Origin: Pirellulales bacterium
GTDB taxonomy: Bacteria; Planctomycetota; Planctomycetia; Pirellulales; JAICIG01
Assembly (NCBI GenBank): GCA_035547915.1
Contig: DASZTS010000014.1
Span: 53,134-117,133, forward strand
Length of the DNA: 64,000 bases
Reading direction: 5' to 3'
The position numbers and the translations under genes were made by a program. Each line of letters begins with the position of its first letter. The stretch's first letter is position 1. The notes beneath the pieces are model-generated. The model was not told the origin of the DNA. It saw only the letters and a list, made by a program, of their open reading frames with translations, and did not search any database. Of the stretch, positions 39,073 to 55,486 are shown in pieces.

Positions 39073-40396
39073 CTGGCGCACGTGCAAAATCGGAGATGTC
39101 TTCACACTGACTCCAGGCTTTGCCTTCAAAAGCAGCGATTTCATCGACCATGGCACGCCGGTATTGAAAATCAAAAATGTAAAGGCAGGCGAAGTCGTAT
39201 TCAATGACTTGAGCTACGTGGCTGACAGTTTTGTGCAGAGTCGCAGCAACTTCCTTGTTCAACATGGCGATATTCTGATTTCCTTGTCAGGGAACCGTAT
39301 CGACGGCTCAAAAGATACTTGGGTAGGAAAAGTTGCCCAGTTTCGACGAAATGGCAACTACCTTCTCAATCAGCGCGTTGGTATCCTGCGGCCGAAAACT
39401 GATGTAACGATTGACACGCGTTGCAGCGCGTACTTGCTGGGTTCAGAACAATACCAACAACTCTTCATCTCAATAGCAACGAGTTCAGGTGGTCAAGCCA
39501 ATCTGTCATCAGCACAGGTGCTGAATGCAGAAATTAGGCTGCCACCGTTCGCTGAGCAGCAGGCTATCGCATGTATTCTTGGGGCATTGGACGACAAGAT
39601 CGCGTTAAACCATCGGCGGAACAGCGGGCTCGAAGCAATCGCGCGCGCGATATTTCAGAGTTGGTTCGTGGACTTCGCTCCAGTGCAAGCGAAAGCAGAA
39701 GGCCGCAAGCCTGCCGGATTGCCGCCGGAACTCATGGCACTGTTTCCCACCTCGTTTGAGGAAAGCGAACTCGGAGAAATTCCGAAGGGATGGCATATCG
39801 GGACGGTTGGGGATGTCGTTGAGATCAACGGTTGGACATTGGGAAAACGGGATGAACTCGACGAGATCAACTACATCGAAATCAGTGAAGTCATGCGAGG
39901 AGAGGTTGCCAATATCACTCGCTATGTTCGTGGAGAAGAGCCCGGACGAGCGAGAAGACGATTGCGACATGGCGACACGGCAATTTCGACCGTCCGACCA
40001 GATCGAGGCGCATATTTTCTGTGTCTTGAGCCCCCGACAAGCCTGATAGCCTCAACCGGCTTCGCGGTTCTCACTGCGAGGGGTGGGCATTGGGCTTTCG
40101 TGCATGTACTCACGACAAGGAACGAATTCGGCCAAGAACTCGGTCGGCTGGCGGATGGTGGCGCGTACCCTGCCGTTCGTCCAGAATTAATCTCGGCTCG
40201 GCCAGTCGTGATCCCCGCAAATGGTAGTGTTTTATCTGCGTTTGAAAAACTCACTCAGCCACTTTTCTTGAAGGTCGAAGCTGAAAGAAAGGAATCCCGC
40301 ACCCTCGCAGCCCTGCGAGATACGCTCTTGCCGAAGCTGATTAGCGGAGAGCTACGTGTGCCGGACGCCGAGCGGATCGTTGGGATGGTGGTATGA
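39062..40396 (+). CDS. hsdS: Type I R-M specificity subunit HsdS (two TRDs)
   Basis: Duplicated TRD and conserved-region architecture. Overlaps hsdM. Confidence 0.88.
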
Positions 40397-41043
40397 GCAC
40401 ACCGCTCAAGCCCTGGACCAGGGGACCATTTGAACTGTTGGTCCATGCCGAGTTGCACCGCCTTGACGGTGACGACTTTGATCGCCGTATGGCGATGATT
40501 AGCTTCGACAACGCAATCGAAGTTGCGATCACAACCTACCTCAACCTAAATCCAATTCAACGCAACAAACGACAGTATCCGAAAGCGGATGTGGAGAAGT
40601 GGCTGACGAATTTTCACACCAAAATCGACTTTTTCATGATCGAACTTGACACCCGTGGCCTTGCAGTTCTGCACGAGCAGGCGGACATCGTTTGGTATCA
40701 CGATTCCAGGAACGAGCAGTATCACGGTGGAAAGCCATCGGTCCCATTGATCGCCGAGCTGGAGACTATTCGTGGGATTGCAATCTGGGTATTTAGCGTG
40801 CTGTTTGAGATACCAGATACGGAGCCAAGGATTGGCGAGGCCATCGCGTTGAGACGCCCACAAACGATGGAAGGGAGAACGCCGGAATATGATGGCTTGA
40901 TCGACGATACGTATGGTACTTGCTCGGTCGCAGGCGACCAATACAAGACGAGCGATGTGCTTCATGCTCTTGATGCAGCGGCTTATGCAGAACTCGGTGA
41001 GGCTCTCAAGCAGCAGCTTGGGCAGGAAGGAAATCCGTCATGA
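40393..41043 (+). CDS. Hypothetical protein embedded between hsdS and hsdR
   Basis: 216-aa ORF with ATGA overlaps at both ends (40393-40396 and 41040-41043). Locally lower GC. No motif recognised. Confidence 0.55.
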
Positions 41044-44190: not shown

Positions 44191-44574
44191 GTGAGAATCA
44201 TTGGACATGGAATCGACATAGTTGAAATTGCCCGCATTCAACGCCTGCTCGATATGCCAAACAGCGAATGGACACGGGCTGCATTCACTTCAAAAGAACG
44301 CGAACTTGCCGACGCACCACCGGCAGACACCCGATATTTCGCAGCACGCTACGCCGCCAAAGAAGCAGTAGGTAAGGCACTCGGAACAGGAATAAGCGGG
44401 GAGATCGCATGGATGGACATCGAAATCCTGCGCCAAGCGACAGGTGAACCGGCGGTGTCCCTGACGCATGCCGCACTGGAGTCCGCCAATGAGCTTGGGG
44501 TAACCCGCTGGATCATCAGCATCAGCCATAGCGGCACGTATGCCGTGGCCAGCGCTATTGCCGTCAGTGAATGA
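44191..44574 (+). CDS. acpS: Holo-[acyl-carrier-protein] synthase (4'-phosphopantetheinyl transferase, AcpS type)
   Basis: MRIIGHGIDIVEIARI...AAKEAVGKALGTG matches AcpS throughout. Confidence 0.8.
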   Translation: MRIIGHGIDIVEIARIQRLLDMPNSEWTRAAFTSKERELADAPPADTRYFAARYAAKEAVGKALGTGISGEIAWMDIEILRQATGEPAVSLTHAALESANELGVTRWIISISHSGTYAVASAIAVSE

Positions 44575-44590
44575 CCAATCTTACTCGCTT

Positions 44591-46555
44591 CTATTGAGTC
44601 TCCTTCATCGTGATCGAGTGCGCATCCAGGTCAACGATGAGACTGCCCGCACCGCGCCGTTTGATTTCCCTCCAAACAGCAAATCCCTCGATGATCGCCT
44701 GTTCCCACTCGCCTGGTGTACAGCAGGATACCTCCAGATGTGACGTCATGTTTTTAATCATCCGGAGGAGTTCGGCGCTCACGCTCGCCTTTCCCTCAAG
44801 CCAGTTGTAATCCTTGGCGTAGGCGAAAATCATGGCAGAAAGCCCTTCCTCCGTCGCGATGGCCCTGCCTCCATCCTCGACTTGATCCACAATTGGATTG
44901 CTCTTCCGTTTCTTCTTCAACATCCTCCGGGTCAGTGGAGACCAGCCAAGCACGGCGGCAAAGGAAAGATGCAGCACGTCATGGAAACCATAGCCATCTT
45001 TCTCGTAGGCGTTATCCGTGAGCGGGTCGCCAAATGGCTCGCCCTTGTAGAAGACCCGGACAACTTCCTTCTCGTCCTTGTCGTGGGTGGTTGCGAAGTC
45101 GATCACAAACCGACGCGGGAATCGTTCCCCCTCTGGGAAGCCTGCATCCAGCGGCTTGCGTTTCGGCAAAGCCCCCCAGCGCTGTTCGCACTTTGCGAGG
45201 TTCCGTTCGGCGACCTCTGCCAGATCAAGGCCGAACTTCGTAGCCAGATTTGACAAATACCAGAGCAGGTCGCCGAGTTCCTCCACAAAGCGATCTTGAA
45301 ACAATGTGTGGGATTCGCCATCGCGCAAGAACTTCTTGTACTCGGTGAGCAATTCACCTGCCTCGCCGGCAAGGCCAAGGAGCGGAATCATGACGCCCTT
45401 TTGATCGGAACCTGGATTCCGGTCGGTCTTCGCCGCTCGCTGTTGATATGCACGCAGGTCCATTTTTGTTCCTCCTGAAGTTGTGATCGTTGTAGCGTCA
45501 AGGCAGTGCGCTGCTACTGCCGCATTGAGGCCCCACTTCGGCGGATACCAATACGAGATCGGTTCAGGATTCGGCCTGAATCGTTGCTTGATGCGGGTTC
45601 GCCCGTTCTGGCCACTAAATTCGGGATGCCGGACGCGGGCGTATTTATCCACCTCACAGAAGAGGTTCTGGCAGTCAATAAGCTGGAGCCTTCGCCCCCA
45701 TAAACTTTGGAATTCAAGGCCCAAGCGAGCAAACTCAGCCTCCTGCCGATCCGCCATGAACCGGATGACTTCAGCATCGTTCAATCCTGCTGTGTCATGA
45801 AAGCACTTGCGAATGCCGTCCATAGCACCAGGCCCAGGAACGACAAACTCCATCTCTGAGAAGCTCGTAAGCGGGCTATAGTTCACATCCGTTGCGTACT
45901 GATATGCCAAGAAATCGCCGATGGTCGCATATCCGCGCAACAGGTCGAATGCGCGCTGCATATTTGGCGCGTCCTTCAAGCGGCGAGGCAAGCCATCGCT
46001 CAACATTGTCTCGATTAGGACAAGGTGATTGCGATGCTTCTTCACGTGACCGAAGGATTGTCCCGACGGCATGATGTAGGCAGCGGAGTATACTTTCGCA
46101 CCGCGAGACATGGCGCGCGTGAGAATCTGGTCGTAGCGCTTGAATGAGTAGTCCTCGTAAGTGACCTGCCCAAGGGATTGCTCCAAAAGCTCCCACGTCT
46201 CAATCCGATTGAACACCTTGAAAAGGATAAGACGGAAGAACACTTCCTGTGGGTCGCTCGGCAAGTCGTCACGATAGATGACTCGCCGGATAAGGTATTG
46301 GCTAACGCGATCCGAAGCGCGGTAAGCGTTCGTGAATTTGTGGGCAAGCAATACAGCGTCATCTGTCCAGGGTGGCAGTTCTTGCGCTAGGCGTTTGAAG
46401 AATATCCGCTGCCGTTCGGCGGCGAGCCGCCAGTACGTGTCAAAGACAGCCGTCGGCTTCAGCGGTGCAATACACGGCGGTGCATATTCGCCCTGTGGCG
46501 CTTGCTTCTGGGCGAAGAGTCCCGCCCCTGACCTACGTGCTGACTTCATGGGCAA
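44591..46555 (-). CDS. Multidomain protein: N-terminal ~370-aa domain of unknown function + MazG-like NTP pyrophosphohydrolase domain + C-terminal domain
   Basis: MazG all-alpha NTP-PPase signature (MIPLLGLAGEAGELLTEYKKF...EELGDLLWYLSNLATKFGLDLAEVAERNLAKCEQRW). The N-terminal region (FKRLAQELPPWTDDAVLLAHKFTNAYRASDRVSQYL) was not recognised. Overlaps the TS-like gene by 10 nt. Confidence 0.7.
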   Translation of the reverse strand: MPMKSARRSGAGLFAQKQAPQGEYAPPCIAPLKPTAVFDTYWRLAAERQRIFFKRLAQELPPWTDDAVLLAHKFTNAYRASDRVSQYLIRRVIYRDDLPSDPQEVFFRLILFKVFNRIETWELLEQSLGQVTYEDYSFKRYDQILTRAMSRGAKVYSAAYIMPSGQSFGHVKKHRNHLVLIETMLSDGLPRRLKDAPNMQRAFDLLRGYATIGDFLAYQYATDVNYSPLTSFSEMEFVVPGPGAMDGIRKCFHDTAGLNDAEVIRFMADRQEAEFARLGLEFQSLWGRRLQLIDCQNLFCEVDKYARVRHPEFSGQNGRTRIKQRFRPNPEPISYWYPPKWGLNAAVAAHCLDATTITTSGGTKMDLRAYQQRAAKTDRNPGSDQKGVMIPLLGLAGEAGELLTEYKKFLRDGESHTLFQDRFVEELGDLLWYLSNLATKFGLDLAEVAERNLAKCEQRWGALPKRKPLDAGFPEGERFPRRFVIDFATTHDKDEKEVVRVFYKGEPFGDPLTDNAYEKDGYGFHDVLHLSFAAVLGWSPLTRRMLKKKRKSNPIVDQVEDGGRAIATEEGLSAMIFAYAKDYNWLEGKASVSAELLRMIKNMTSHLEVSCCTPGEWEQAIIEGFAVWREIKRRGAGSLIVDLDAHSITMKETQ

Positions 46556-47412
46556 CCCTTCGCGCCGACGAGCGAGTCAACGTTTTCGGTCTCGATGCAC
46601 GCCCGCGACAGTGCCATCAGCCGGTCGAGGAGAACACCACGCTTCGGGCGCATCGCAGAGTCCATTTTCTGAATGCCCGTGTAACAACAGAGCTGACTGA
46701 AACGCAGGCCAGTTTGACTGGCGACGAACTCGCCAAGCCGGCACAATCCCAGCCAGTTTCCATATGCCTTCACGAACAACTGCTGAGTTGCATAGAAGGC
46801 GTTGAGTGCCAACGTCCCGTCGGTGAAATCGGGCACGAAAGTGATGTGCTGGAGGCACGGGAATCCTTGCTGCGCCGCGCCAGTCAGGTCGCGCACTGGG
46901 TCATAGACCGCAGCTTGAAGCATTGCTCGCCTTTTTCCCTTTTGGCAGTGCTCAATGATGAACTCGATTTGATTGCCGTCGCTGCTCCATGCAGTCGCGG
47001 GCAGGTGCTTTACACGCTGCCCTGTTCTTGGATCAGTCCCGAATGCGATCAACCGGGCGAAATACATCCCGTGTCCATTCTTGGATGGCTCCATCGTCAC
47101 GTAGTCGGGGAGGTAAGTGAGATAGTCCTTGTACAGTTTGTAGCGGTCGCCATTGGCACGCCGCCACAATGCCTGCGGGAAGATCGACTTCGCCACCTTC
47201 TCGACAAGCTGATGCCCGGCTTCGTCAAGGCAAGCGTCGAGCGCGGCACGCACGTCCTTATCCTCTGTGACAACGCCATCGGCGAAGCCGGTGACACTGA
47301 CCAGACATGGCGTCAGCTCGTGACCGCGCCGTGAAAGCGCTTCGAGGAAGCACCGTGACCAGGCCATTGAGAGACTCGGATCGCTGCTCGCGTACAGACC
47401 ATTCTTACTCAT
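46546..47412 (-). CDS. Divergent thymidylate synthase-fold protein (ThyA / dNMP hydroxymethylase family)
   Basis: GFPCLQHITFVPD...GTLALNAFYATQQLFVKAYGNWLGL aligns with the TS catalytic-Cys region (LPPCH..[33 protein letters not shown]). Confidence 0.5.
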   Translation of the reverse strand: MSKNGLYASSDPSLSMAWSRCFLEALSRRGHELTPCLVSVTGFADGVVTEDKDVRAALDACLDEAGHQLVEKVAKSIFPQALWRRANGDRYKLYKDYLTYLPDYVTMEPSKNGHGMYFARLIAFGTDPRTGQRVKHLPATAWSSDGNQIEFIIEHCQKGKRRAMLQAAVYDPVRDLTGAAQQGFPCLQHITFVPDFTDGTLALNAFYATQQLFVKAYGNWLGLCRLGEFVASQTGLRFSQLCCYTGIQKMDSAMRPKRGVLLDRLMALSRACIETENVDSLVGAKGCP

Positions 47413-48286
47413 CGTCGCCTTCCTCTCGTGCCAGGTGCCGATATTGACTCCAACCGGCGTACTGGTACGGCGATATCCGAACCACCACGGCCCATTGACC
47501 AGGGGCCTCGACTCGGCTCAAGCCAGCCCTTTCAGCTCTAAACAGTCGGCCTGCGGACAGATCGCCGATCGGTGTAAGGCAAGTGCGATACTCAGGTTCG
47601 CTGCCCGCAGGCAGCAACAGAAACGTGCCGACTTCGGCGTCAACTTGCGCCAAAGCATAATGTTGGTCGGCGACGATCAATCGTTCCGCCGCATCTGAAC
47701 CGAGTAGCGCACGGCGGATGGCGGGCAGCTTCGCGCGCCGCAGCTTTTCCGCCTGCCTTGTACCGATCTCGCCCAGACCATAAGCCAAGTGGCTCACTAT
47801 GGTCTCATATCCAACGCCGAAGTGGCACGCGACCACGTAAAGCTGCTCTGGCGAGGCCGCATTTAGAGACCACTTTCGGGCCGTAAACGCGCGCCGAACC
47901 CCGAGCTTCGGCATCAGGAGAAAGCCGGCGAACGCATTGACTAAAAACTCATTCGGGTCGGTGCGTGGATTGGCATGGCTGTCCTCTTGAAGCTCGTCGA
48001 TTGTGGAGCCGTGGCCGAACACATGATGCCCAAGTTCATGTGCACAGTTAAAGACCCGACGCGGTAGTGGGCGCAATGCCGAGACTTGGATCAAGGGGCG
48101 ACTTGACCGAAGGTAGCACCCTTCCATGTTGTAATCGACGAACAGCACACGTACCTTCGGTGAAAGCCGGTCGCATAGGTCGAAGACGTTCAAGGGCGTG
48201 CCGAAGTCGATTCCTGCACGCTCGCGGACCTCCAGCGCCATCTGCAATGCGTCCTGGGCCAGTGCGGTTCGGTCCACCACGGTCAC
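47405..48286 (-). CDS. ImmA/IrrE-family metallopeptidase (DUF955)
   Basis: HEXXH motif (CAHELGHHVFGH) in the ImmA-like context, directly downstream of the XRE repressor gene. Confidence 0.8.
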   Translation of the reverse strand: MTVVDRTALAQDALQMALEVRERAGIDFGTPLNVFDLCDRLSPKVRVLFVDYNMEGCYLRSSRPLIQVSALRPLPRRVFNCAHELGHHVFGHGSTIDELQEDSHANPRTDPNEFLVNAFAGFLLMPKLGVRRAFTARKWSLNAASPEQLYVVACHFGVGYETIVSHLAYGLGEIGTRQAEKLRRAKLPAIRRALLGSDAAERLIVADQHYALAQVDAEVGTFLLLPAGSEPEYRTCLTPIGDLSAGRLFRAERAGLSRVEAPGQWAVVVRISPYQYAGWSQYRHLAREEGDDE

Positions 48287-48633
48287 TCTCCTTCACGTGG
48301 GCCGCGGAGCGCCGCCAACGCGCGCATTAGTTTGTCCAAGTCATCTGGTTTTAGTTTTTGCAATTCGCGAAACGCAAGTTGCAGTCGCTCGTCTTGGGGC
48401 TGGAGCTGATCCCCTCCCTCGCCCGATAGCCAAGCGACACTGACATCGTATATTTCCGCGAAGCGGGTCAGCTCCGTTACGGTCACGTTCCGGTTACCCG
48501 CCTCAATCTCCGAAATCGTCGGGCGGTGCAGGTCCATCATTTTTGCCACCTGCCCCTGTGACAGGCCCGCCAGCTTGCGCGCTTCCCGGAGCCTTCGGGC
48601 GATGAGCTGCTTCTTGTCCAATGTGTCGCTCAT
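48283..48633 (-). CDS. XRE-family HTH transcriptional repressor (ImmR-like)
   Basis: LREARKLAGLSQGQVAKMMDLHRPTISEIEAGNRNVTVTELTRFAEIY helix-turn-helix. Confidence 0.8.
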   Translation of the reverse strand: MSDTLDKKQLIARRLREARKLAGLSQGQVAKMMDLHRPTISEIEAGNRNVTVTELTRFAEIYDVSVAWLSGEGGDQLQPQDERLQLAFRELQKLKPDDLDKLMRALAALRGPREGE

Positions 48634-48935
48634 GTCTTGGCCTCCTGTCCAGCGTAGGCTTCAATGAAGCGGTGCGCGATCTCCTCGATGGACAGCTTGC
48701 GCTTGCCGTCTTGAGATACGTAAATGTTCTTCACCCGCGTTCCCTCTGGCAGTGGGTTGCCCAAATCCCGGGCAAGCCTGCGGACGATTTCGGGAATGAA
48801 GTCACTCTCAAAGCCCTTTAGACCATCCAACGGGCAAATTGACGGACGAATTTTGTCTTCGTCGTCGTAGCCTCCGCCGCGCTGGTAATCGCGATGGATT
48901 TCGACGAGCTTGGCGACCACATCGTCTTTTTTCAT
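48630..48935 (-). CDS. Hypothetical protein
   Basis: RBS AAAGGAGA then ATG (MKKDD...). First gene of the XRE-ImmA-TS-like-MazG operon. Confidence 0.45.
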   Translation of the reverse strand: MKKDDVVAKLVEIHRDYQRGGGYDDEDKIRPSICPLDGLKGFESDFIPEIVRRLARDLGNPLPEGTRVKNIYVSQDGKRKLSIEEIAHRFIEAYAGQEAKT

Positions 48936-49233
48936 CGGTAAATCTCCTTTATGTAAGATAATCTTACCAACCGGTAAGGAGGCTGTCAAGGAGAATTTCG
49001 TCATGCACCTTCTGCCTGACGCACGTGACCGCTTCCGCCGCCTTGCGGCACACCTTGCGATGCGAACTACTTTGCGGCCCCTGCCATTTCATGTCTGAAC
49101 GCCGCCCCAGCCAGACGTCAAGCGGGACTAAGCCCATCGAAAAAGACGTGACAATCGGGCGTGGAGTGGTTTGCTCTCAGGCAAATCGCCCAGAACCAGG
49201 GTCAAGACTGGCTGAAGACAGTGCAAGCAATCA

Positions 49234-50436
49234 TTACGCCTTCGCCGCAGCTTCAAGCTGCTTCTCGTTGGCGACGACATCGACATGCCACACTCCCGCC
49301 TCCGCAAGGAACTTAGCCGCACGCTTCGCGAGGTTCAGCAGTCGTGTGTCGTGTGTGAGAAAGATGTTCATCGTGCTCAACATTGCGGCATGCTCGCAGT
49401 CGAACGACAGCCCACCCGTCGGAATCTCCCCCTTGGCCAGGCACATTTCCAACTCTCCCAACACTACCTCGTCAGGCACGCGGGCGTATAAAAGGCACGT
49501 GCGCGACAGATTGCGGAATAGTATTTGGAGCGCCTTGGCCAGGAGCTGAGCGTCGGACGCGCACTGCGCCGGGGCCGCCTCCGCGAGAAACTTCGGCGGC
49601 GCCATCGCCTTGTTTCCGTGGATGACACCCCAGTAATCCCGGATCGCAGCCGTGTCAAACGTCATGAGCAGGAACGAATTGCGGTGGAACACGCTGGCCA
49701 TACACTGCCCTAATTCCGCCGCGCTATACGCCTCCGCAACCTGCTTTTTGTTCTTTTGAAGGCGTCCACGCGTGGCGTCGTCCATCGGCGTTGCCTGCGC
49801 CACATTCTGGTCGATCTCGTCGCGCAGGTCCTGGAGTGGCCGTGCATCGAATTCGGCCCAAATGTCGTCGGTCGTTACCAGAAATTCTTTGGCGCATTTG
49901 ACCATCTCGTCCACGAACGCCGCCGGGGCACGGGCGAATCGCGAGTGAAGCAATCGGCTGGTGATCTTCGACCGTAAAAGATCATCAATCGCCTCTGGGC
50001 GGTTGAGCGTCCGGAGCGCCGCAAGCATGGCGAGCAGGCCCGCATATACCTGTTGGCTGGTAGTCTGCGCGAACTCGAAATAATCCAAGCACCGGATGGC
50101 CGCCGGGGCCGCAGCGTCAATGACCTGGAGCAAATTCCGCACAAGCAGAAACTCGAATCCGGGTGCCATCCGGCGGCAATTGGTCAGTTCGACAAGTGCC
50201 TGGGCGAGGCGCACGCGAAGGTCCAGCTTCGGCGTGTCCCTCAAGCAACTCTGCTCATCGAAATCAGCGCATAGGAAAATCTCCAGCACATTGACCGGGC
50301 TGGTCCACACTTCGACCGCTCCTTCAGCCGCCAGATTGGCGATCATGCCGCCGAGTTTCGTCTCACTCCACGGTGTCGCAGCATCCTCGCACATGGTAGA
50401 AAGGCAACACTGGTCGATGTATAGCTTCTTTGGCAT
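49234..50436 (-). CDS. Hypothetical protein
   Basis: 400-aa ORF with no recognised motif. Last gene of the element before the tRNA array resumes. Confidence 0.5.
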   Translation of the reverse strand: MPKKLYIDQCCLSTMCEDAATPWSETKLGGMIANLAAEGAVEVWTSPVNVLEIFLCADFDEQSCLRDTPKLDLRVRLAQALVELTNCRRMAPGFEFLLVRNLLQVIDAAAPAAIRCLDYFEFAQTTSQQVYAGLLAMLAALRTLNRPEAIDDLLRSKITSRLLHSRFARAPAAFVDEMVKCAKEFLVTTDDIWAEFDARPLQDLRDEIDQNVAQATPMDDATRGRLQKNKKQVAEAYSAAELGQCMASVFHRNSFLLMTFDTAAIRDYWGVIHGNKAMAPPKFLAEAAPAQCASDAQLLAKALQILFRNLSRTCLLYARVPDEVVLGELEMCLAKGEIPTGGLSFDCEHAAMLSTMNIFLTHDTRLLNLAKRAAKFLAEAGVWHVDVVANEKQLEAAAKA

Positions 50437-50690: not shown

Positions 50691-50765
50691 TGCGGTGGGA
50701 CCCGTGTTGGTACGGGTAGGCGGCTGTTAACCGCCCGGACGCAGGTTCGATTCCTGCCACCGCAG
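50691..50765 (+). tRNA. tRNA-Asn(GTT)
   Basis: U1:A72 acceptor TGCGGTG/CACCGCA, G73, anticodon arm GGCGG-CTGTTAA-CCGCC, T-arm GCAGG-TTCGATT-CCTGC. Confidence 0.8.
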
Positions 50766-50805
50766 CTTTTTTAAGCCTAATCTGGTTTTGTCGGTTGCTC
50801 TAAAT

Positions 50806-50877
50806 GTGCCCTTGGCCGAGCGGCAAAGGCTCCAGCCTTCCAAGCTGGCGAGGCGAGTTCGACTCTCGCAGGGCACT
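50806..50877 (+). tRNA. tRNA-Gly(TCC)
   Basis: Acceptor GTGCCCT/AGGGCAC, U73, anticodon arm CCAGC-CTTCCAA-GCTGG, T-arm GCGAG-TTCGACT-CTCGC. Confidence 0.8.
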
Positions 50878-50891
50878 CTGCATCGGATTGA

Positions 50892-50962
50892 TCGGGGATC
50901 GGCTAACGGTAGGCTGCCTGGCTTTGACCCAGGTGATGGAGGTTCAAGTCCTTCTCCCCGAA
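50892..50962 (+). tRNA. tRNA-Gln(TTG)
   Basis: U1:A72 acceptor TCGGGGA/TCCCCGA, anticodon arm CCTGG-CTTTGAC-CCAGG, T-arm GGAGG-TTCAAGT-CCTTC. Short D-arm. Confidence 0.65.
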
Positions 50963-50998
50963 CTTTGCTCGCGATGGTGTGTCTCAAGTAATACCCGA

Positions 50999-51072
50999 TC
51001 CGGGGCAGTCGCTGCTGGTAGCGATGCCTGGCTCTGAACCAGGAGGCGTTGGTTCGATTCCAACCCCCGGAA
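50999..51072 (+). tRNA. tRNA-Gln(CTG)
   Basis: Acceptor TCCGGGG/CCCCGGA, D-stem GTCGC/GCGAT, anticodon arm CCTGG-CTCTGAA-CCAGG, T-arm GTTGG-TTCGATT-CCAAC. Confidence 0.75.
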
Positions 51073-51121
51073 TTTTTATGGTCGAAAGAGATCTGCAACA
51101 AGTCGTGAACAACAGATAGAT

Positions 51122-51209
51122 GCGGAGGTCATCCGGCTGGATGAGGAACTTGTCTCGAAAACAAGTAGCGGCCCTGCCGCTTGTGAGTTCGAGTCTCACG
51201 GCCTCCGCC
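51122..51209 (+). tRNA. tRNA-Ser(CGA) (class II)
   Basis: Acceptor GCGGAGG/CCTCCGC, anticodon arm CTTGT-CTCGAAA-ACAAG, long variable arm GCGGCCCTGCCGC, T-arm GTGAG-TTCGAGT-CTCAC. Confidence 0.75.
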
Positions 51210-51322
51210 TTGAGTAAGAGCGGCTGATAGAAACCAAAAGCCCGAGCGCCATGGCAAAAATTGGCTGTGAAACGCCAATTTTTCGGCAGCTCGATCCAAT
51301 TTTGTCGGCTGCAATAAAACAC

Positions 51323-51395
51323 GGTCCCGTGGCCTAGCAGCGAAGGCAGCACCCTTACAAGGTGACGATCGACAGTGCGAGTCTGTCCGGGACTA
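51323..51395 (+). tRNA. tRNA-Val(TAC)
   Basis: Acceptor GGTCCCG/CGGGACT, anticodon arm GCACC-CTTACAA-GGTGA, T-arm GACAG-TGCGAGT-CTGTC (G55 in place of U). Confidence 0.65.
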
Positions 51396-51410
51396 CTTCA
51401 AACGCGAATC

Positions 51411-51484
51411 GCCTAGGTACGCCAACAGGCAGAGCGGCTTGGCTTAAACCCAAGTGTTTGCGGGTTCAACTCCCGCCCTGGGCA
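51411..51484 (+). tRNA. Class-I (short variable arm) tRNA with UAA anticodon (Leu anticodon, atypical)
   Basis: Acceptor GCCTAGG/CCTGGGC, anticodon arm CTTGG-CTTAAAC-CCAAG, T-arm GCGGG-TTCAACT-CCCGC. 74 nt with only a 5-nt variable loop. Confidence 0.55.
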
Positions 51485-51546
51485 CTCGTGAAGACAGCTT
51501 AGAGCAACCGGCAAGATCGGACGCCGGTCTTGTCAGCCGCTCTTAC

Positions 51547-51619
51547 GGCTCGGTAGGCAACGGCAGACCACCTTGGCTTAGAACCAGGGATGCTGTGGGT
51601 TCGAGTCCCACCTGAGCCA
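51547..51619 (+). tRNA. Class-I tRNA with UAG anticodon (Leu anticodon, atypical)
   Basis: Acceptor GGCTCGG/CTGAGCC, anticodon arm CTTGG-CTTAGAA-CCAGG, T-arm GTGGG-TTCGAGT-CCCAC. 6-nt variable loop. Confidence 0.55.
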
Positions 51620-51624
51620 TTCGC

Positions 51625-51742
51625 ATAAGAACGGCTGACGAAACCTGGAAGCCGGAGCGCGGCGGGCGAAAAATCGGTCGTGAAACGCCGAGTTTTTGAA
51701 ACATCGAGTCGGTTTCGTCAGTTGCTCGAAGAATTTCGTCCT
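51625..51742. repeat. Palindromic ~110-bp spacer element (TAGAGCGGCTGACAAAACCGG ... CCGGTTTTGTCGGTTGCTCTA family)
   Basis: Inverted terminal arms and internal hairpin ATCGGCCGTGAAACGCCGAT. Further copies at 52014-52108, 52352-52473, 52553-52660 and 55491-55600. Partial copies at 51497-51545, 52905-52950, 53290-53350 and 56451-56512. Confidence 0.75.
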
Positions 51743-51747
51743 CGTGG

Positions 51748-51822
51748 AGCAGCCTGGAGTGCTCGCCACCCTGTCAAGGTGGAGGTCGTGGGTTCAAATC
51801 CCATCGGGGACGCCTTTGAAAG
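51748..51822 (+). tRNA. tRNA-Asp(GTC)
   Basis: Acceptor GTCCTCG/CGGGGAC, G73, D-stem GAGC/GCTC, anticodon arm CCACC-CTGTCAA-GGTGG, T-arm GTGGG-TTCAAAT-CCCAT. Confidence 0.8.
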
Positions 51823-51835
51823 CACGGCGCGGTAC

Positions 51836-51913
51836 GCAAACGGGAAAAGCGGCCAAGCTCAAACCTTGGTGATTCTTTGTCGGTTCGACTCCGACCCGCG
51901 CCACTCGAACACG
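51836..51913 (+). tRNA. tRNA with CAA anticodon (Leu anticodon), 9-nt variable loop, atypical
   Basis: Acceptor GGCGCGG/CCGCGCC, anticodon arm CCAAG-CTCAAAC-CTTGG, T-arm GTCGG-TTCGACT-CCGAC. 78 nt, without the long class-II variable arm. Confidence 0.55.
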
Positions 51914-51931
51914 AACAACATGCGTCGGTTG

Positions 51932-52013
51932 GGCATTGGCAAGCTCCAGTGGCCGTAACCCACCCGCCTTCGGGCTCTGCAGGTTCGACTCCTGCCCGGC
52001 GCACTAAGAGCGG
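51932..52013 (+). tRNA. tRNA-Tyr(GTA) (class II), C33
   Basis: Acceptor GCGTCGG/CCGGCGC, A73, anticodon loop CCGTAAC, variable arm CCGCCTTCGGGCT, T-arm GCAGG-TTCGACT-CCTGC. Confidence 0.55.
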
Positions 52014-52117
52014 CTGACAAAATCGGGAAGCCGGAGTGCCGCGGGCGAAAAAATCGGCCGTGAAACGCCGGTTTTTGTGGCTCGATCCGGTTCTGTCGGT
52101 TGCTCTAGATACAACTT

Positions 52118-52188
52118 GGCCCGTTCGTCTATCGGTAGGACACGAGCCCCTCAAGCTCGGAAGGCGGGTTCGATTCCCGTGCGGGTCA
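52118..52188 (+). tRNA. tRNA-Glu(CTC), C33
   Basis: Acceptor GGCCCGT/GCGGGTC, D-arm of Glu type (TCGTCTATCGGTAGGAC), anticodon arm CGAGC-CCCTCAA-GCTCG, T-arm GCGGG-TTCGATT-CCCGT. Confidence 0.6.
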
Positions 52189-52192
52189 CTTC

Positions 52193-52276
52193 GGCCAAGT
52201 GGTGCAATTGGAAGACACACGACGCTCAGAACGTCGGCCCCTCGCGGGCGTGGGAGTTCGAGTCTCCCCTTGGTCA
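52193..52276 (+). tRNA. tRNA-Leu(CAG) (canonical class II)
   Basis: Acceptor GGCCAAG/CTTGGTC, anticodon arm CGACG-CTCAGAA-CGTCG, long variable arm GCCCCTCGCGGGCGT, T-arm GGGAG-TTCGAGT-CTCCC. Confidence 0.8.
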
Positions 52277-52282
52277 TTTCGA

Positions 52283-52351
52283 CGCAGGTGGGCCAGTGTC
52301 CAGCGAAGCCTCATAAGCTTCGCGCGCCGGGTGCGACTCCCGGACCTGCAA
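52283..52351 (+). tRNA. tRNA-Met(CAT), short (69 nt), initiator-like C1.A72 mismatch
   Basis: Anticodon arm (GC)GAAGC-CTCATAA-GCTTC(GC), T-arm CCGGG-TGCGACT-CCCGG, acceptor CGCAGGT/ACCTGCA with unpaired C1.A72 and A73. Reduced D-arm. Confidence 0.5.
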
Positions 52352-52476
52352 CTTTGGAGTTGCTCTTAGAGCGGCTGACAAAACCCGGAAGCCGGAGCGC
52401 CCGTGGGCGAAAAATCGGCCGTGAAACGCCGATTTTTGTGGAGCGAAGTCCGGTTTTGTCGGTTGCTCTTAGATGC

Positions 52477-52552
52477 GGCCGGGTACGCAAACCGGAAAAG
52501 CGGCGAGGTCGAGAGCCTCGTGACTCTGTGGGTTCGACCCCCACCTCGGCTA
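52477..52552 (+). tRNA. tRNA with GAG anticodon (Leu anticodon), 7-nt variable loop, C33, atypical
   Basis: Paralog of the CAA tRNA (same TA-CGC-AAACCGGAAAA-GCG D-arm). Anticodon arm CGAGG-TCGAGAG-CCTCG, T-arm GTGGG-TTCGACC-CCCAC. Confidence 0.5.
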
Positions 52553-52660
52553 CTAAGAGCGGTTGACAAAAGCTAGACGCCGGCGCGCCGCGGGCGAGAA
52601 ATCGGCCGCGAAACGCCGATCTTTGTGGAGCGCGATCTGGTTTTGTCGATTGCTCTAAAC

Positions 52661-52732
52661 GATCTCGTGGTCCAACGGCGACGACGCTTGGCTGACGTCC
52701 GGGAAACGATGGTTCAACTCCATCCGGGATCA
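52661..52732 (+). tRNA. tRNA-Val(GAC)
   Basis: Acceptor GATCTCG/CGGGATC, anticodon arm CTTGG-CTGACGT-CCGGG (two G.U pairs), T-arm GATGG-TTCAACT-CCATC. Confidence 0.55.
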
Positions 52733-52737
52733 CTCAT

Positions 52738-52808
52738 GGTCTGTAGGTGTTTCGGCAGCACACCGCCGTGGTAAGGCGGAAGACCCGGTTCAATTCCGGG
52801 ACGGACCT
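52738..52808 (+). tRNA. tRNA-Thr(GGT)
   Basis: Acceptor GGTCTGT/ACGGACC, anticodon arm CCGCC-GTGGTAA-GGCGG, T-arm CCCGG-TTCAATT-CCGGG. Confidence 0.75.
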
Positions 52809-52829
52809 CTGACACGACAAACACAACAC

Positions 52830-52901
52830 GGGCCTGCATGTCCCCGGAGGCGACTGACCCTTGCAAGGTCGGTGTGATGGGTTCGACCCCCATCAGGTCC
52901 A
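52830..52901 (+). tRNA. tRNA-Ala(TGC)
   Basis: G3.U70 identity pair, acceptor GGGCCTG/CAGGTCC, anticodon arm TGACC-CTTGCAA-GGTCG, T-arm ATGGG-TTCGACC-CCCAT. Confidence 0.8.
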
Positions 52902-52955
52902 CTTGTTAGAGGAACCGACAGAACCGGATCGAGCTTTCCTCGGATCGACTGATAT

Positions 52956-53026
52956 GGGCTGCTGGTCCAACGGGACGACGCCGGCTCCGCAGGCCGGAAA
53001 TCGGAGTTCGACTCTCCGGCGGTCCA
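52956..53026 (+). tRNA. tRNA-Ala(CGC), C33
   Basis: G3.U70 present. Anticodon arm CCGGC-TCCGCAG-GCCGG, T-arm CGGAG-TTCGACT-CTCCG. Confidence 0.6.
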
Positions 53027-53036
53027 CTGACAACGA

Positions 53037-53107
53037 GGGCTCATCGTCAAAAGGGAAGACGCCAGTCCGGCAGGCTGGAGATCTGGGTTCGATTCCCAGT
53101 GGGTCCA
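53037..53107 (+). tRNA. tRNA-Ala(GGC), C33
   Basis: G3.U70 present. Anticodon arm CCAGT-CCGGCAG-GCTGG, T-arm CTGGG-TTCGATT-CCCAG. Confidence 0.6.
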
Positions 53108-53124
53108 CTCAACCGAGGAGAAAG

Positions 53125-53211
53125 GGAAGGTAGGCGGATACGGCTTGCCGCGCCGCTTTGCTAAAGCGGTTCCCGGGACACGGGATGAGGGTTCGACTCC
53201 CTTGCCTTCCG
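53125..53211 (+). tRNA. tRNA-Ser(GCT) (class II)
   Basis: Acceptor GGAAGGT/GCCTTCC, G73, anticodon arm CCGCT-TTGCTAA-AGCGG, variable arm TCCCG-GGACA-CGGGA, T-arm GAGGG-TTCGACT-CCCTT. Confidence 0.75.
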
Positions 53212-53217
53212 CTCGTT

Positions 53218-53289
53218 GCCCCGATGGTGAAACGGACATCATCCCCTGCTTCTAACTGGGTGTTCCGGGTTCGAGTCCTGGTCGGGGTA
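53218..53289 (+). tRNA. tRNA-Arg(TCT)
   Basis: Acceptor GCCCCGA/TCGGGGT, anticodon arm CCCTG-CTTCTAA-CTGGG (one U.U mismatch), T-arm CCGGG-TTCGAGT-CCTGG. Confidence 0.5.
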
Positions 53290-53366
53290 CTGATAAGAGC
53301 AACCGAAAAGACCGGATTGCGCTCTCGGCTTCCGGTTCTTGCCGGCCACTGTAAGGAGGACCGTTT

Positions 53367-54170
53367 ATGACAACCGACATCGAGAGGCAATTCGCCAAGA
53401 TGGGTGCGCGGATCAAGCTGCACGAGCGCGAGCAGATCGGCAGCATGGCCGGCGTCTCGATCGACATCGGTCGCGACCGGTTGGGCGAGTTTTATGACGT
53501 CTCTGTGGACAACCGCGACGACAAGAACTTGTCGGTGCTCGACGTGCGACCCCGCATCCGGCACTTGCTGTTGTCGTACCATCGGCCGGCGGTGAACACC
53601 AACAGCCGGTTCCTGTGCGGTCACGACGAGCGGCATTGGTTCGTCGCGGCGATCCCCGAAACATCGGCGTCGTCGTCGGTGCGGACCGCCATGGAGTCGC
53701 TCAAGCCGATGGCCGTTCGCCGCCTGCAGGAGAGACTTCGCGTCAAGCCACAGAAGCGGAACCGCCGGCGCAACGCAGCGTTCGTCCGACAGGGCGAGTG
53801 GTTCTTCATCCGTATTGCTCCATCCGTCCGCATCGACGAGTGGATGGTTCTGCGGAACGAGCCATTGCGGCGTGGCAACGGCAAGCCGCATTTCGTCGAG
53901 GAGCTGATTCGCGTCGGCGGAGAAGCGGTCTATGTCAGCAACCAATACCCGCAGGGTCTCACGTTCCGCGAGTATCAGAAGCTGATCGGCCGCAAGCCGG
54001 AGCTACGGCACTTGCAATGGGTTGTGCAGCGGCGCAACCCGCAGGTTTTTGTACGGGGTAGGGTTCGCCATGCCGATCACAAGACGATTTTCTTGGACGG
54101 CTGGCACCAGGTACTGATGAACACCGAGACGCAGTCGCTCGCGATGCGTCATGTGGCGTTCATCGACTGA
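53367..54170 (+). CDS. Hypothetical protein (inside tRNA array)
   Basis: RBS AAGGAGG then ATG. 267-aa basic protein with no recognised motif. Confidence 0.5.
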   Translation: MTTDIERQFAKMGARIKLHEREQIGSMAGVSIDIGRDRLGEFYDVSVDNRDDKNLSVLDVRPRIRHLLLSYHRPAVNTNSRFLCGHDERHWFVAAIPETSASSSVRTAMESLKPMAVRRLQERLRVKPQKRNRRRNAAFVRQGEWFFIRIAPSVRIDEWMVLRNEPLRRGNGKPHFVEELIRVGGEAVYVSNQYPQGLTFREYQKLIGRKPELRHLQWVVQRRNPQVFVRGRVRHADHKTIFLDGWHQVLMNTETQSLAMRHVAFID

Positions 54171-54202
54171 GAGTCGGACGATAAAGAGAGCCGGACGATA
54201 AA

Positions 54203-54356
54203 TTCCCTCTCCCTCCGGGAGAGGGTTAGGGTGAGGGCCGATCGCGCGCTCCTGTGTTGTCGACTCTCTTCGGACGTGGCTGAGTTTTCGCTGAACAGGG
54301 GACCGACCCCATTAGTACTCTCAGCCGCCCTCACCCAACCCTCTCCCCGAGGAGAG
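54203..54356. repeat. ~160-bp palindromic element (CCCTCTCCC...GGGAGAGGG family), copy 2
   Basis: Near-identical to 12053-12212. Partial copies at 55112-55170 and 55320-55345. Confidence 0.8.
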
Positions 54357-54414
54357 GACGGAAGACTGCGGAAGTTATTCGATCGCGGGTTGGCGGAACC
54401 GTCGACCCGCATAC

Positions 54415-54490
54415 GGTGTCTGTGGTGTAGCGGTATTCTGCACGCCCGGCTGTGAACCGGATGGTATGGGTTCGACTCCCGTCAGACACC
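54415..54490 (+). tRNA. tRNA-His(GTG) with encoded G-1
   Basis: G-1 pairs with C73. Acceptor GTGTCTG/CAGACAC, anticodon arm CCCGG-CTGTGAA-CCGGA, T-arm ATGGG-TTCGACT-CCCGT. Followed by a CTTTTTTTG tract. Confidence 0.8.
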
Positions 54491-54517
54491 CTTTTTTTGA
54501 CAAGGAGGAATTTGGTC

Positions 54518-55111
54518 GTGGTTGCAAAGATGTTGAACAGACCGGCGCTGGTGCTCAACCGTAACTGGCAGCCGGTGAACGTCGCTACCGTCGCTCGCGC
54601 GCTGGTCATGCTCTTCAACGAGGCGGCCCGCGTCGTCGACCCGCACGACTACCAGCTCTACACCTGGACTGACTGGTCGCGGCTGGCTCCGCGCGACGGC
54701 GAGCCGTTCATCCGGGCGGTGAGCCTGCGGCTGCGCGTGCCGGAGGTGATCGTGCTGGCGGGTTACGATCGGCTGCCCGAGGCGGCCGTCTCGTTCAGCC
54801 GGCGCAACATCTTCAAGCGTGACCACTACACGTGCCAGTATTGCGGCGTGCAACCCGGCCTCGCGGAGTTGTCGATCGACCACGTCGTCCCGCGGTCGCA
54901 GGGCGGCACCTCGACCTGGGACAACTGCGTGCTGGCATGCGTGGACTGCAACAAGACGAAGGCCGACCGCACGCCCGCCGAGGCCGGCATGAAACTGCGC
55001 AAGCAGCCTTGCCGGCCACAATGGAAGCCACTCTACGCCGCGCACAACGTGCGCATCGAGAGCTGGTCGAAGTTCATCAGCGAAGCCTACTGGAGTGTCG
55101 AACTCCGCTAG
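54518..55111 (+). CDS. HNH endonuclease
   Basis: C-terminal HNH motif (DHVVPRSQGGTSTWDNCVLACVDCNKTKADRTP) and Cys-rich CQYCG. RBS AAGGAGG, then a GTG at 54518 or an ATG at 54530. Confidence 0.75.
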   Translation: MVAKMLNRPALVLNRNWQPVNVATVARALVMLFNEAARVVDPHDYQLYTWTDWSRLAPRDGEPFIRAVSLRLRVPEVIVLAGYDRLPEAAVSFSRRNIFKRDHYTCQYCGVQPGLAELSIDHVVPRSQGGTSTWDNCVLACVDCNKTKADRTPAEAGMKLRKQPCRPQWKPLYAAHNVRIESWSKFISEAYWSVELR

Positions 55112-55245
55112 ATCCCCTCTCCCTCTGGGAGAGGGTTAGGGTGAGGGCGGCTTGCATTACAAGCCGCGTCCAACCTGCCTCTCGCTGACAATAGTTTCTT
55201 CGTTCGTTTCCCGATCCAAGCTGGGGCAGCTTGGATCGGCCTTAT

Positions 55246-55315
55246 AGGATCGTGCTCCTGGGAGAGCACGCGGTCTCCAAAGCCGCTTCACGGGGTTCGA
55301 CTCCTCGCGATCCTG
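55246..55315 (+). tRNA. tRNA-Trp(CCA)
   Basis: A1:U72 acceptor AGGATCG/CGATCCT, G73, D-stem GCTC/GAGC, anticodon arm GCGGT-CTCCAAA-GCCGC, T-arm CGGGG-TTCGACT-CCTCG. Confidence 0.8.
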
Positions 55316-55414
55316 CTCGATCCCCTCTCCCTCCGGGAGAGGGCAAACAGGTCGATACCCGTGCCCAGTGACAACTACATAACACGCGAGTCATCGGCCT
55401 TACATGAACAACCT

Positions 55415-55486
55415 GTCCTGATGGTGTAACGGAACGCATTCGACCCTCCGAAGGTCGTGGTCCTGGTTCGAGTCCAGGTCGGGACA
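55415..55486 (+). tRNA. tRNA-Arg(CCG)
   Basis: Acceptor GTCCTGA/TCGGGAC, anticodon arm CGACC-CTCCGAA-GGTCG, T-arm CCTGG-TTCGAGT-CCAGG. T-tract follows. Confidence 0.8.

Follow-up and report, generated by a model that had tools for sequence, protein, structure and literature searches.

A cassette with a predicted repressor-peptidase switch linking a divergent thymidylate synthase-fold enzyme, HMUDK_hel and MazG domains and a predicted carrier protein: a candidate inducible conflict system from a Pirellulales bacterium

Why should enzymes of pyrimidine nucleotide metabolism be placed behind a repressor and a metallopeptidase on a mobile element? The question is raised by an operon in a 64,000-nucleotide stretch of a Pirellulales bacterium (GenBank assembly GCA_035547915.1, contig DASZTS010000014.1), hereafter the window, where a prediction made from the sequence alone (hereafter the original prediction) had proposed an undescribed system in which a thymidylate synthase (TS)-like enzyme and a MazG-domain fusion protein modify DNA or deplete nucleotides. 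Our analysis suggests, with a probability that we put at roughly 0.5, that the operon and the gene convergent with it, six parts in all, constitute a self-contained, horizontally mobile, autoregulated and inducible conflict system, most likely anti-phage, that would act through 5-hydroxymethyl-pyrimidine chemistry involving a carrier protein. What we show are the genes with their folds and conserved residues, the operator, and the synteny, fusions and distribution of the parts; each chemical step, the trigger and the outcome are inferred.

The operon lies on the minus strand between 48935 and 44591 and, as the original prediction had it, comprises five leftward open reading frames (ORFs) that overlap by 4-10 nt at each junction, behind one promoter-like site (Table 1). 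The frame of the first gene extends from 48630 to 49004 and its start is almost certainly the ATG at 48935, which is preceded at a distance of 8 nt by an AAGGAG ribosome-binding site. In the final gene an ATG at 46549 makes an ATGA overlap with the preceding stop, and the product, counted here as 654 aa, may instead be a 652-aa protein starting at that ATG. When 185,579 species, each represented by one genome, were scanned by pattern, 333 stretches from about seven phyla proved to encode relatives of the TS-like protein; the counts given below for related loci cover 86 loci, i.e. 80 of these stretches and six from assemblies.

The 288-aa product of the fourth gene has no Pfam match and falls below the curated thresholds of the TS families (Pfam PF00303, NCBIfam), scoring 38 bits (E 1.2e-9) against TIGR03283, the archaeal thymidylate synthase model, which has a cutoff of 174.55. 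A single-sequence phmmer search of the PDB likewise returned nothing useful. Its AlphaFold2 (AF2) model, based on 38 homologues (predicted local distance difference test score, pLDDT, 87.6; predicted template modeling score 0.88), yielded 396 matches at E<=0.001 in a Foldseek search of the PDB, and the best 50 of these 396 all belong to the TS superfamily, among them MilA (a CMP hydroxymethylase), ThyA, a phage dCMP hydroxylase and AfhB; the best of them have E values of ~2e-8, TM scores of 0.42-0.56 and 12-16% identity. The model has the alpha/beta fold of the TS superfamily, and MilA, an enzyme of mildiomycin biosynthesis, is the best match by both structure and profile. Cys186, within the motif FPCLQH, is invariant in 38 close relatives, at least 90% conserved in 62 distant ones, and aligned with the FPC of gp51 from phage PaMx11, i.e. 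at the position of the catalytic cysteine; the hhalign alignment between the family and gp51 is short and at the level of motifs. A motif alignment further pairs Tyr117, Arg161 and Asn219 with Tyr94, Arg126/127 and Asn177 of Escherichia coli ThyA, of which Asn177 is the residue that specifies uracil. As modeled, the protein keeps the fold and the predicted nucleophile of TS but is not an orthodox ThyA, and the family to which it belongs has 879 cluster representatives at E<=1e-3.

The 654-aa product of the last gene was described in the original prediction as an unrecognized N-domain, a MazG core and a C-domain of ~100 aa. The N-domain proved recognizable: it matches PF18723, HMUDK_hel, from end to end (1.5e-110). 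This family was formerly named alpha-glutamyl/putrescinyl thymine pyrophosphorylase (aGPT-Pplase) clade 1, a name still used in one phage record, so that the profile comparison with aGPT-Pplase and 5-hydroxymethyl-deoxyuridine (5-hmdU) kinase families that had been suggested as a check returned an aGPT-Pplase/5-hmdU-kinase-associated family and places the domain in the aGPT-Pplase superfamily. In the AF2 model of the whole protein (pLDDT 84.6) the N-domain has a fold like that of the helix-hairpin-helix (HhH) glycosylases. A Cys300-Glu301 pair is invariant in the family, recurs in gp50 of PaMx11 and in the corresponding protein of the E. coli defense system DS-4 (see below), and appears to stand at about the same relative position as the catalytic Cys247 of PaMx11 gp46. 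The N-domain has homologues in 493 phage records, most of them from ViI-like Salmonella and M6/PaMx11-like Pseudomonas phages or from other thymidine hypermodifiers. The PaMx11 homologue is gp50 (hhalign probability 99.1%), which lies between gp49 and the TS-like gp51 and just downstream of gp46; in that phage gp49 is the 5-hmdU DNA kinase, gp51 the TS-like enzyme and gp46 a glycine transferase (PMC8989533). When the fusion family was compared by hhalign with gp46, a clade-2 transferase, no sequence relationship was found, and the link between them is visible at the level of fold alone.

The MazG core of the original prediction is borne out. The Pfam match covers residues 394-459, and the domain has the all-alpha MazG fold with the EXXE...EXXD metal-ligand motif, of which E398, E426 and D429 are invariant in 41/41 homologues and E401 is present in 34/41; E405 and E425 are likewise invariant in 41/41. 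The domain resembles SSO3215, iMazG and DCTPP1/RS21-C6, and its closest solved relatives are pyrimidine deoxynucleoside triphosphate (dNTP) hydrolases such as DCTPP1; MazG matches in a single-sequence phmmer search of the PDB were marginal. Neither an unrelated fold for the 288-aa protein nor a loss of the MazG ligands, findings that would have spoken against the original prediction, was obtained. The C-domain extends over ~190 aa rather than ~100 aa and is PF18722, MazG_C (1e-70), termed a 'predicted nucleotide kinase' by DeWeirdt et al. 2026 (PMC13092281). A Pfam scan of the 654-aa protein revealed no P-loop kinase domain of the kind found in the phage 5-hmdU DNA kinases, and a look-up of its exact sequence returned no record.

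Searches of Pfam, NCBIfam, PHROG and PADLOC gave no match for the small protein encoded by the first gene, which stays below all curated thresholds. In an alignment of 33 diverse homologues M1, P35 and S44 are the sole invariant positions, and Ser44 lies within a (G)F(D/E)S motif (GFES in the window) as a putative phosphopantetheine attachment site. Searching all PDB sequences with a profile of the family gave 27 matches at E<=10, mostly acyl carrier proteins (ACPs) and ACP domains of polyketide synthases, and Ser44 is aligned on their phosphopantetheine-bearing serine in both HMMER and hhalign alignments; direct comparison with an ACP profile by hhalign gave an E value of 4.9e-5 with the same match of Ser to Ser. 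PP-binding is the sole Pfam family matched by more than one homologue (3/33, best E 0.0016), and on a Streptomyces cathayae plasmid the gene before those for the XRE, ImmA and TS-like proteins is itself annotated 'acyl carrier protein' (TIGR00517, 1.8e-7). These scores are modest but agree with one another, and we consider the protein likely to be a phosphopantetheinylated carrier. Convergent with the operon, with the two 3' ends 16 nt apart in the window (44574-44591), is a gene for an AcpS-type 4'-phosphopantetheinyl transferase (PPTase), which matches PF01648 (9.6e-18), clears the cutoffs of TIGR00516 (80.8 vs 59.8) and TIGR00556 (90.7 vs 45.35) and has the Mg-binding and KEA motifs; GxD, KEA and SxSH are conserved in 45 cassette-linked copies. 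Of the related loci that reach far enough, 47/73 have an AcpS gene tied to the cassette, at the cassette end (within ~100 nt) in 46 and, in L048, on the upstream side of the small ORF; the orientation is mostly convergent and is co-directional in several beta- and gammaproteobacteria. Look-ups of homologues in public assemblies similarly uncovered distant bacteria with the same cassette and a convergent ACPS-family gene directly after its last gene. Because the linkage holds in 47/73 loci across phyla, we regard the PPTase as part of the cassette and reject the idea of a housekeeping gene placed there by chance. The pair resembles AcpP and AcpS in that the PPTase passes the acpS cutoffs and the small protein combines the serine motif with profile-level similarity to ACPs. 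It differs from them in that no fatty-acid or polyketide genes lie near the cassette and in that the carrier, of ~100 aa, is very divergent, with GF(D/E)S rather than GADSL, and is the first gene of a repressor-controlled operon of nucleotide enzymes. In many related loci the 3' ends of the AcpS gene and of the last operon gene overlap by 7-27 nt, and this conserved tail-to-tail layout could allow antisense or transcriptional-interference control.

The repressor and ImmA-like Zn-protease of the original prediction were both recovered. They are encoded by genes 2 and 3 of the operon, co-directional and overlapping, after the carrier-protein gene. The first is an XRE-family helix-turn-helix protein (HTH_3, 7e-16; PADLOC capH, 2e-13; the NCBIfam RstR-type repressor model, 7e-14, under its cutoff) and the second a metallopeptidase with a HELGH (HEXXH) motif (Peptidase_M78, 1.5e-12; PADLOC capP, 2.2e-12). 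In a PADLOC scan of the five operon proteins only these regulators have matches, to the capH, capP and RmrA models. Both have low sequence similarity to solved members, and relatives of the M78 peptidase are found across the related loci with phmmer E values down to 1e-190. The putative promoter is sigma-70-like, with TTGACA, a spacer of 17 nt and a TG-extended TAAGAT (10/12 consensus matches); since the promoter scan overall found 2 sites against a mean of 2.1 in shuffled sequences, i.e. no excess, this call rests on its position and on a conserved palindrome. The latter, GTAAGATtATCTTAC (GTAAGAT-t-ATCTTAC, 48953-48967), is a perfect 7+7 inverted repeat of 15 bp that overlaps the -10 element, and a second palindrome with the same half-sites, CTTACC-ggtt-GGTAAG (48963-48978), lies in the promoter spacer. 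The core pattern GTAAGA-N3-TCTTAC is found once in the window, and the related loci, 1.08 Mb in total, hold 53 copies against ~0.06 expected by chance; 52/53 are upstream of the small ORF, and the pattern stands at the equivalent place in 52/75 XRE-holding loci, from cyanobacteria to proteobacteria. Because it is kept at the same position across loci, there is strong evidence that the palindrome is a conserved operator and that the cassette travels as a self-contained, autoregulated unit. A pairing of an HTH repressor with an M78 HEXXH peptidase is shared with CapH/CapP, ImmR/ImmA and DdrO/IrrE, and a palindromic operator overlapping the promoter is a further likeness to such damage-responsive pairs. 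By analogy with CapP, IrrE/PprI and ImmA (PMC13228613), the trigger of the cassette is probably single-stranded DNA or DNA damage.

Over the 86 loci the TS-like protein is found in 86, HMUDK_hel in 85, MazG in 79, the M78 peptidase in 76, and the XRE repressor, MazG_C and, after a renewed search with hidden Markov models, the carrier protein in 75 each. The hosts are Planctomycetota, many Cyanobacteria, Acidobacteriota, Myxococcota, Actinomycetota, Gemmatimonadota and Alpha-, Beta- and Gammaproteobacteria. Most commonly HMUDK_hel is separate from a MazG-MazG_C protein; it is fused to both in the window, to a thymidylate kinase-like (Thymidylate_kin) P-loop domain in some relatives, and to the TS-like enzyme itself in one natural fusion of 624 aa (P0123). 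Because such gene fusions join them, the parts of the cassette can be regarded as tied together. Relatives of MazG/MazG_C are present in 35 plasmid records, of which 18 are typed conjugative. The RefSeq annotation of a copy on a Rhizobium rosettiformans plasmid reads, in order, hypothetical protein, HTH protein, ImmA/IrrE peptidase, thymidylate synthase, nucleotide kinase domain protein, NTP pyrophosphohydrolase and acpS, and this cassette adjoins SIR2 and AAA ATPase genes. Defense genes are frequent neighbors in general, viz. type I restriction-modification (R-M) in the window and, in relatives, MmeI-like with WYL, E2/E1/JAB, SIR2 with AAA, AbiEii and TIR. That the cassette is primarily phage-borne was considered and rejected, in that a pattern scan found 3 relatives in 2.9 million viral contigs and tblastn with the TS-like family found none in 50,697 phage genomes.

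Several variants were observed among these loci. A dCTP deaminase-like gene (Pfam DCD) stands beside the AcpS gene in 12/86 loci from several phyla, the window not being among them; its product may feed the pathway as an optional enzyme (dCTP to dUTP), or the gene may simply travel alongside the cassette. Five cyanobacterial loci (L046, L058, L061, L065, L077) are without carrier, XRE and M78 genes and instead share a conserved ORF of ~270 aa upstream of the TS-like gene; these variants may be constitutive or otherwise regulated. In Azonexus and Dechloromonas (L059, L086) the AcpS gene directly follows HMUDK_hel, with MazG and MazG_C not detected, and the MazG module appears dispensable in some lineages. 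In a Phycisphaerales metagenome-assembled genome (L003-L006, 11915-16345) another XRE/M78 pair, unrelated to that of the cassette, comes directly after it and governs a prokaryotic E2/E1(ThiF)/JAB ubiquitin-like operon, such that two cassettes with switches of the damage type stand back to back.

The closest tested system is DS-4 ('NTTI'; DeWeirdt, Mahoney & Laub, Science 2026; PMC13092281), which was validated as a phage defense in E. coli, consists of genes for a TS, a deoxynucleoside monophosphate (dNMP) kinase, HMUDK_hel, TIR and Nmad2, and has an unpublished mechanism. The only parts it has in common with the window cassette are a TS-family protein and a HMUDK_hel protein. Over 310 aa the latter shares 29% identity with the window N-domain (E 6e-32), and both display the motifs KF.N..R..DR, SAAYI, IGDFLAYQ, GPG and CE.DK; for the former, the authors tabulate a HHpred probability of 100% to Pfam Thymidylat_synt, and it aligns weakly with the TS-like family of the window (hhalign 35%, E 4e-4). 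DS-4 has a P-loop dNMP kinase, TIR and Nmad2, whereas its five listed genes include no MazG, MazG_C, carrier, PPTase or XRE/M78 pair. As judged from its genes, the cassette, which lacks the five-gene set, is a relative of DS-4 and not a member of it. The thymidine-hypermodification pathways of phages PhiW-14, SP10, ViI, M6 and PaMx11 employ a dUMP hydroxymethylase, a 5-hmdU DNA kinase and an aGPT-Pplase2 (clade-2) transferase (PMC5889632, PMC8989533, PMC11472151). The window, in contrast, has no P-loop 5-hmdU kinase, no clade-2 transferase and none of the tailoring enzymes dependent on pyridoxal phosphate, radical S-adenosylmethionine or FAD, whereas a carrier protein, a PPTase and an XRE/ImmA switch have not been reported with the phage pathways.

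The claim that the system is undescribed holds in part. Our literature search, which covered 7.7 million papers, found none on the cassette, although its neighborhood is perhaps catalogued in Iyer et al. 2013 or Burroughs et al. 2015, and PADLOC-DB v2.0 contains no effector model that matches the TS-like protein, the 654-aa fusion or the small ORF. On the other hand, the Pfam families were already established, relatives bear the RefSeq/PGAP names 'putative DNA base hypermodification protein' (also given to the DS-4 HMUDK_hel protein) or 'thymidylate synthase', the related DS-4 is known, and DeWeirdt et al. 2026, crediting Burroughs et al. 2015, list aGPT-Pplase, MazG and MazG-C among predicted, unvalidated defense domains (PMC13092281). 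Similarly, the general idea of a TS-like enzyme and a MazG fusion under an XRE/ImmA switch in a conflict setting stands, but the carrier, the PPTase and the operator palindrome had been missed. The literature search turned up no functional test of a clade-1 (gp50-type) protein, even in phages, no defense system in which nucleotides or DNA are modified with the help of a carrier protein and a PPTase, and no report of the operator; the carrier chemistry, if real, would be categorically new.

How such a system might work can be outlined as follows. At rest, the XRE repressor would bind the palindrome GTAAGATTATCTTAC over the -10 element and keep the operon off, by analogy with ImmR/ImmA, DdrO/IrrE and CapH/CapP; single-stranded DNA or DNA damage would then activate the M78 peptidase, which would cleave the repressor and thereby induce all of the genes. 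The DCTPP1-like MazG domain would convert a pyrimidine dNTP to the dNMP and/or remove a canonical dNTP, a step to which the dCTP deaminase-like neighbor of some relatives could add. The TS-fold enzyme would use Cys186 to turn a dNMP, probably dUMP, into a 5-hydroxymethyl-type derivative, which would be built into DNA during replication or else remain a nucleotide. The HMUDK_hel domain, as a predicted base flipper with a Cys-Glu pair akin to the catalytic Cys of the phage transferases for 5-phosphomethyl-deoxyuridine (5-PmdU), may activate the 5-substituent of the nucleotide, before or after its incorporation into DNA, partnered by MazG_C or, in some relatives, by the Tmk-like kinase. In the phage clade-2 transferases a cysteine expels phosphate from 5-PmdU to leave an exocyclic methylene, which accepts amines, hydroxyls and, in vitro, beta-mercaptoethanol (PMC8989533; PMC11472151). 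Since a carrier and a PPTase are present, the likely chemistry changes in the cassette, and a specific and testable one can be predicted: the AcpS-type PPTase would convert the small carrier to its holo form, whose pantetheine thiol, or a group loaded on it, would be the nucleophile or donor. A bulky base adduct, or a thioether between nucleotide or DNA and protein, would then block replication of the invader. That the carrier thiol or loaded group specifically joins a 5-methylene- or 5-phosphomethyl-uracil, with a protein-nucleotide/DNA thioether or a pantetheine-derived hypermodification as the inducible weapon, is a tentative proposal of unprecedented chemistry that we ourselves hold doubtful. 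One study of 5-hydroxymethyluracil reports that its phosphorylation in template DNA is by itself enough to switch off transcription in vitro (PMC6457204).

A number of observations weigh against a carrier-dependent conflict system. Several catalytic and phosphate-binding residues of ThyA are missing from the TS-like enzyme in the motif alignment, the position of Glu58 being occupied by a variable Gln80 and that of Arg166 by Ala208, so that its substrate and activity are uncertain. The scores behind the carrier assignment are individually weak (best PDB E 0.054; no Pfam match for the window protein), and about a third of the cassettes have no adjacent AcpS gene. The window cassette has neither the P-loop 5-hmdU kinase nor the clade-2 transferase of the phage pathways, and a kinase role for MazG_C is a published prediction alone, our search for structural relatives of this domain having come back empty. 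Moreover, CapH/CapP are upstream of and on the opposite strand to the operon that they regulate (10.1101/2022.04.27.489752), unlike the regulators of the cassette, which are neither upstream nor divergent and lie within the operon that they control. Lastly, carriage on a conjugative element fits an anti-restriction role equally well: upon induced transfer the element's own thymine would be replaced or decorated so as to survive restriction in the recipient. Such self-modification would accord with the position of the window copy in an integrative element with a relaxase, a coupling protein and two recombinases, with the conjugative typing of 18/35 of the plasmid records noted above, with the membership of phage N-domain relatives in pathways that shield DNA from restriction (PMC8989533, PMC5889632) and with the control of integrative and conjugative element (ICE) mobilization by ImmR/ImmA switches, as cited in 10.1101/2022.04.27.489752. 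We nevertheless judge it unlikely: the cassette travels as a whole, operator included, and recurs in very different surroundings, many of the stretches examined being without nearby transfer genes, the window cassette has no clade-2 transferase or tailoring enzyme, relatives of the TS-like protein are nearly absent from viral collections, and the sole tested relative, DS-4, is defensive. Between self-modification and inducible defense we lean toward the latter, given the precedent of DS-4 and the placing of the operon under a repressor and a protease.

Two further accounts dispense with a DNA adduct. Depletion of dNTPs, as by dCTP deaminases and dGTPases, is an established defense strategy, and the cassette might do no more than drain or poison the pool, with MazG consuming a dNTP and the TS-like enzyme diverting dUMP/dCMP or sequestering folate while the other parts are regulatory or accessory. 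The conserved acidic ligands of MazG, the pyrimidine dNTPases (e.g. DCTPP1) among its closest solved relatives and the dCTP deaminase-like neighbor in 12/86 loci agree with this; but the near-universal coupling or fusion of the TS-like enzyme to a DNA glycosylase-fold domain with an invariant Cys-Glu pair would be left unexplained, as would a carrier protein with an invariant serine and its PPTase, making the account improbable to us. In the other account the cassette makes a small natural product of nucleoside type, e.g. a toxin or a signal, that does not act on DNA; carriers served by a PPTase of their own are characteristic of natural-product pathways, and MilA is the enzyme that the TS-like protein matches best in structure and profile. 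However, genes for adenylation, condensation, ketosynthase or thioesterase functions are absent from the gene tables inspected and from the commonest neighbor families, relatives of the N-domain act on bases in DNA, and the damage-type repressor/protease switch and the defense-island neighbors suggest conflict and not metabolism; we therefore hold this origin very unlikely. The remaining probability goes to something else altogether.

Table 1. Features of the cassette in the window (positions 1 to 64,000), with the related loci that carry a dCTP deaminase-like gene in the last line.
Feature	Position	Strand	Basis
Putative carrier protein, first gene, 101 aa	48630..48935	-	HMM, profile searches
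XRE-family HTH repressor, 116 aa	48283..48633	-	Pfam HTH_3, PADLOC, NCBIfam
ImmA/IrrE/CapP-type Zn metallopeptidase, 293 aa	47405..48286	-	Peptidase_M78, HELGH
Divergent thymidylate synthase-fold enzyme, 288 aa	46546..47412	-	AF2 and Foldseek, Cys186
HMUDK_hel, MazG and MazG_C fusion protein, 654 aa	44591..46555	-	Pfam
HMUDK_hel/aGPT-Pplase clade 1 domain, residues 35-314	45614..46453	-	PF18723
MazG NTP-pyrophosphohydrolase domain, residues ~367-460	45176..45457	-	Pfam
MazG_C domain, residues 467-653	44597..45157	-	PF18722
AcpS-type 4'-phosphopantetheinyl transferase, 127 aa	44191..44574	+	PF01648, TIGR00516, TIGR00556
Promoter-like site and putative operator	48953..48989	-	promoter scan, inverted-repeat scan
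DCD-carrying related loci: L009, L037, L042, L053, L055, L064, L070, L071, L079, L082, L084, L085	e.g. L009:10318-11106		

The surroundings agree with the ICE beside R-M genes that had originally been proposed. An island with G+C below that of its surroundings extends from ~12.3 to 50.7 kb of the window and encodes a serine recombinase, a coupling protein in two ORFs, a ParB-like protein, a tyrosine integrase, a TrwC relaxase, a methylase-helicase of 1949 aa and a type I R-M operon, with 80 nt between the end of the latter and the AcpS gene; the island is flanked by genes for planctomycete-specific PSD/PSCyt proteins. The coupling protein, of the VirD4/TraG family of type IV coupling proteins, is divided into overlapping ORFs at 15106-15972 and 15969-17240, which may reflect a frameshift, and the element may no longer be self-transmissible. 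The 1949-aa protein (31162-37011) combines a DUF6094/Eco57I-type methyltransferase region with a SNF2/ResIII helicase, an architecture often seen in the large anti-restriction or 'orphan' methylase-helicases that conjugative elements carry. Within the R-M operon a 216-aa ORF without a Pfam match (40393-41043) lies between hsdS and hsdR and overlaps both. Two direct repeats of 85 nt (26316-26400 and 27356-27440; 92% identical, 1040 nt apart) bracket a 369-aa ORF for a 2-oxoglutarate-Fe(II) oxygenase-like protein (26221-27330), one lying inside its 5' end and the other just beyond its 3' end. A 400-aa ORF between the cassette promoter and the tRNA genes (49234-50436) has no significant family match, and was rejected as a member of the cassette, with a homologue in 0/86 related loci.

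The element, of ~38 kb, sits between two blocks of an array of 38 plus-strand tRNA genes, one of 10 (11097-12322) and one of 28 (50691-55861), with a near-full set of anticodons, and is placed as if it had been inserted within one large array. The serine recombinase ORF (12303-13793, minus strand) overlaps the 3' end of tRNA-Pro(CGG). A search for attachment-site direct repeats of the island turned up only repeats derived from tRNAs and spacers. The spacers contain families of direct repeats of 36-85 nt (51215-52660; 12046-12186 / 54196-54336 / 55106-55155 / 55315-55343) and a recurring hairpin, CCCTCTCCCT-nn-GGGAGAGGG, followed by TTAGGGTGAGGGC, and a segment of ~140 nt 5' of tRNA-Pro(CGG) is ~88% identical to one 5' of tRNA-His. 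An HNH endonuclease ORF (219 aa, 54452-55111) also lies within the array, its start overlapping tRNA-His (54416-54491).

Enzymes of thymidine hypermodification are known as a counter-defense of phages, and DS-4 is the sole tested bacterial system to use two of them. The cassette described here presents a different combination of enzymes from that of DS-4, is widespread and is found on conjugative plasmids and integrative elements as well. It offers a clean genetic handle, in that a single promoter-like site, a conserved operator of 15 bp, and one repressor with one protease make up its control. If it does defend its host by marking or cross-linking DNA through 5-substituted uracil, this would represent a new immune mechanism and a source of enzymes for the site-selective derivatization of DNA, and would provide the first function for the clade-1 aGPT-Pplase (gp50-type) proteins encoded in 493 phage records of the collection searched.

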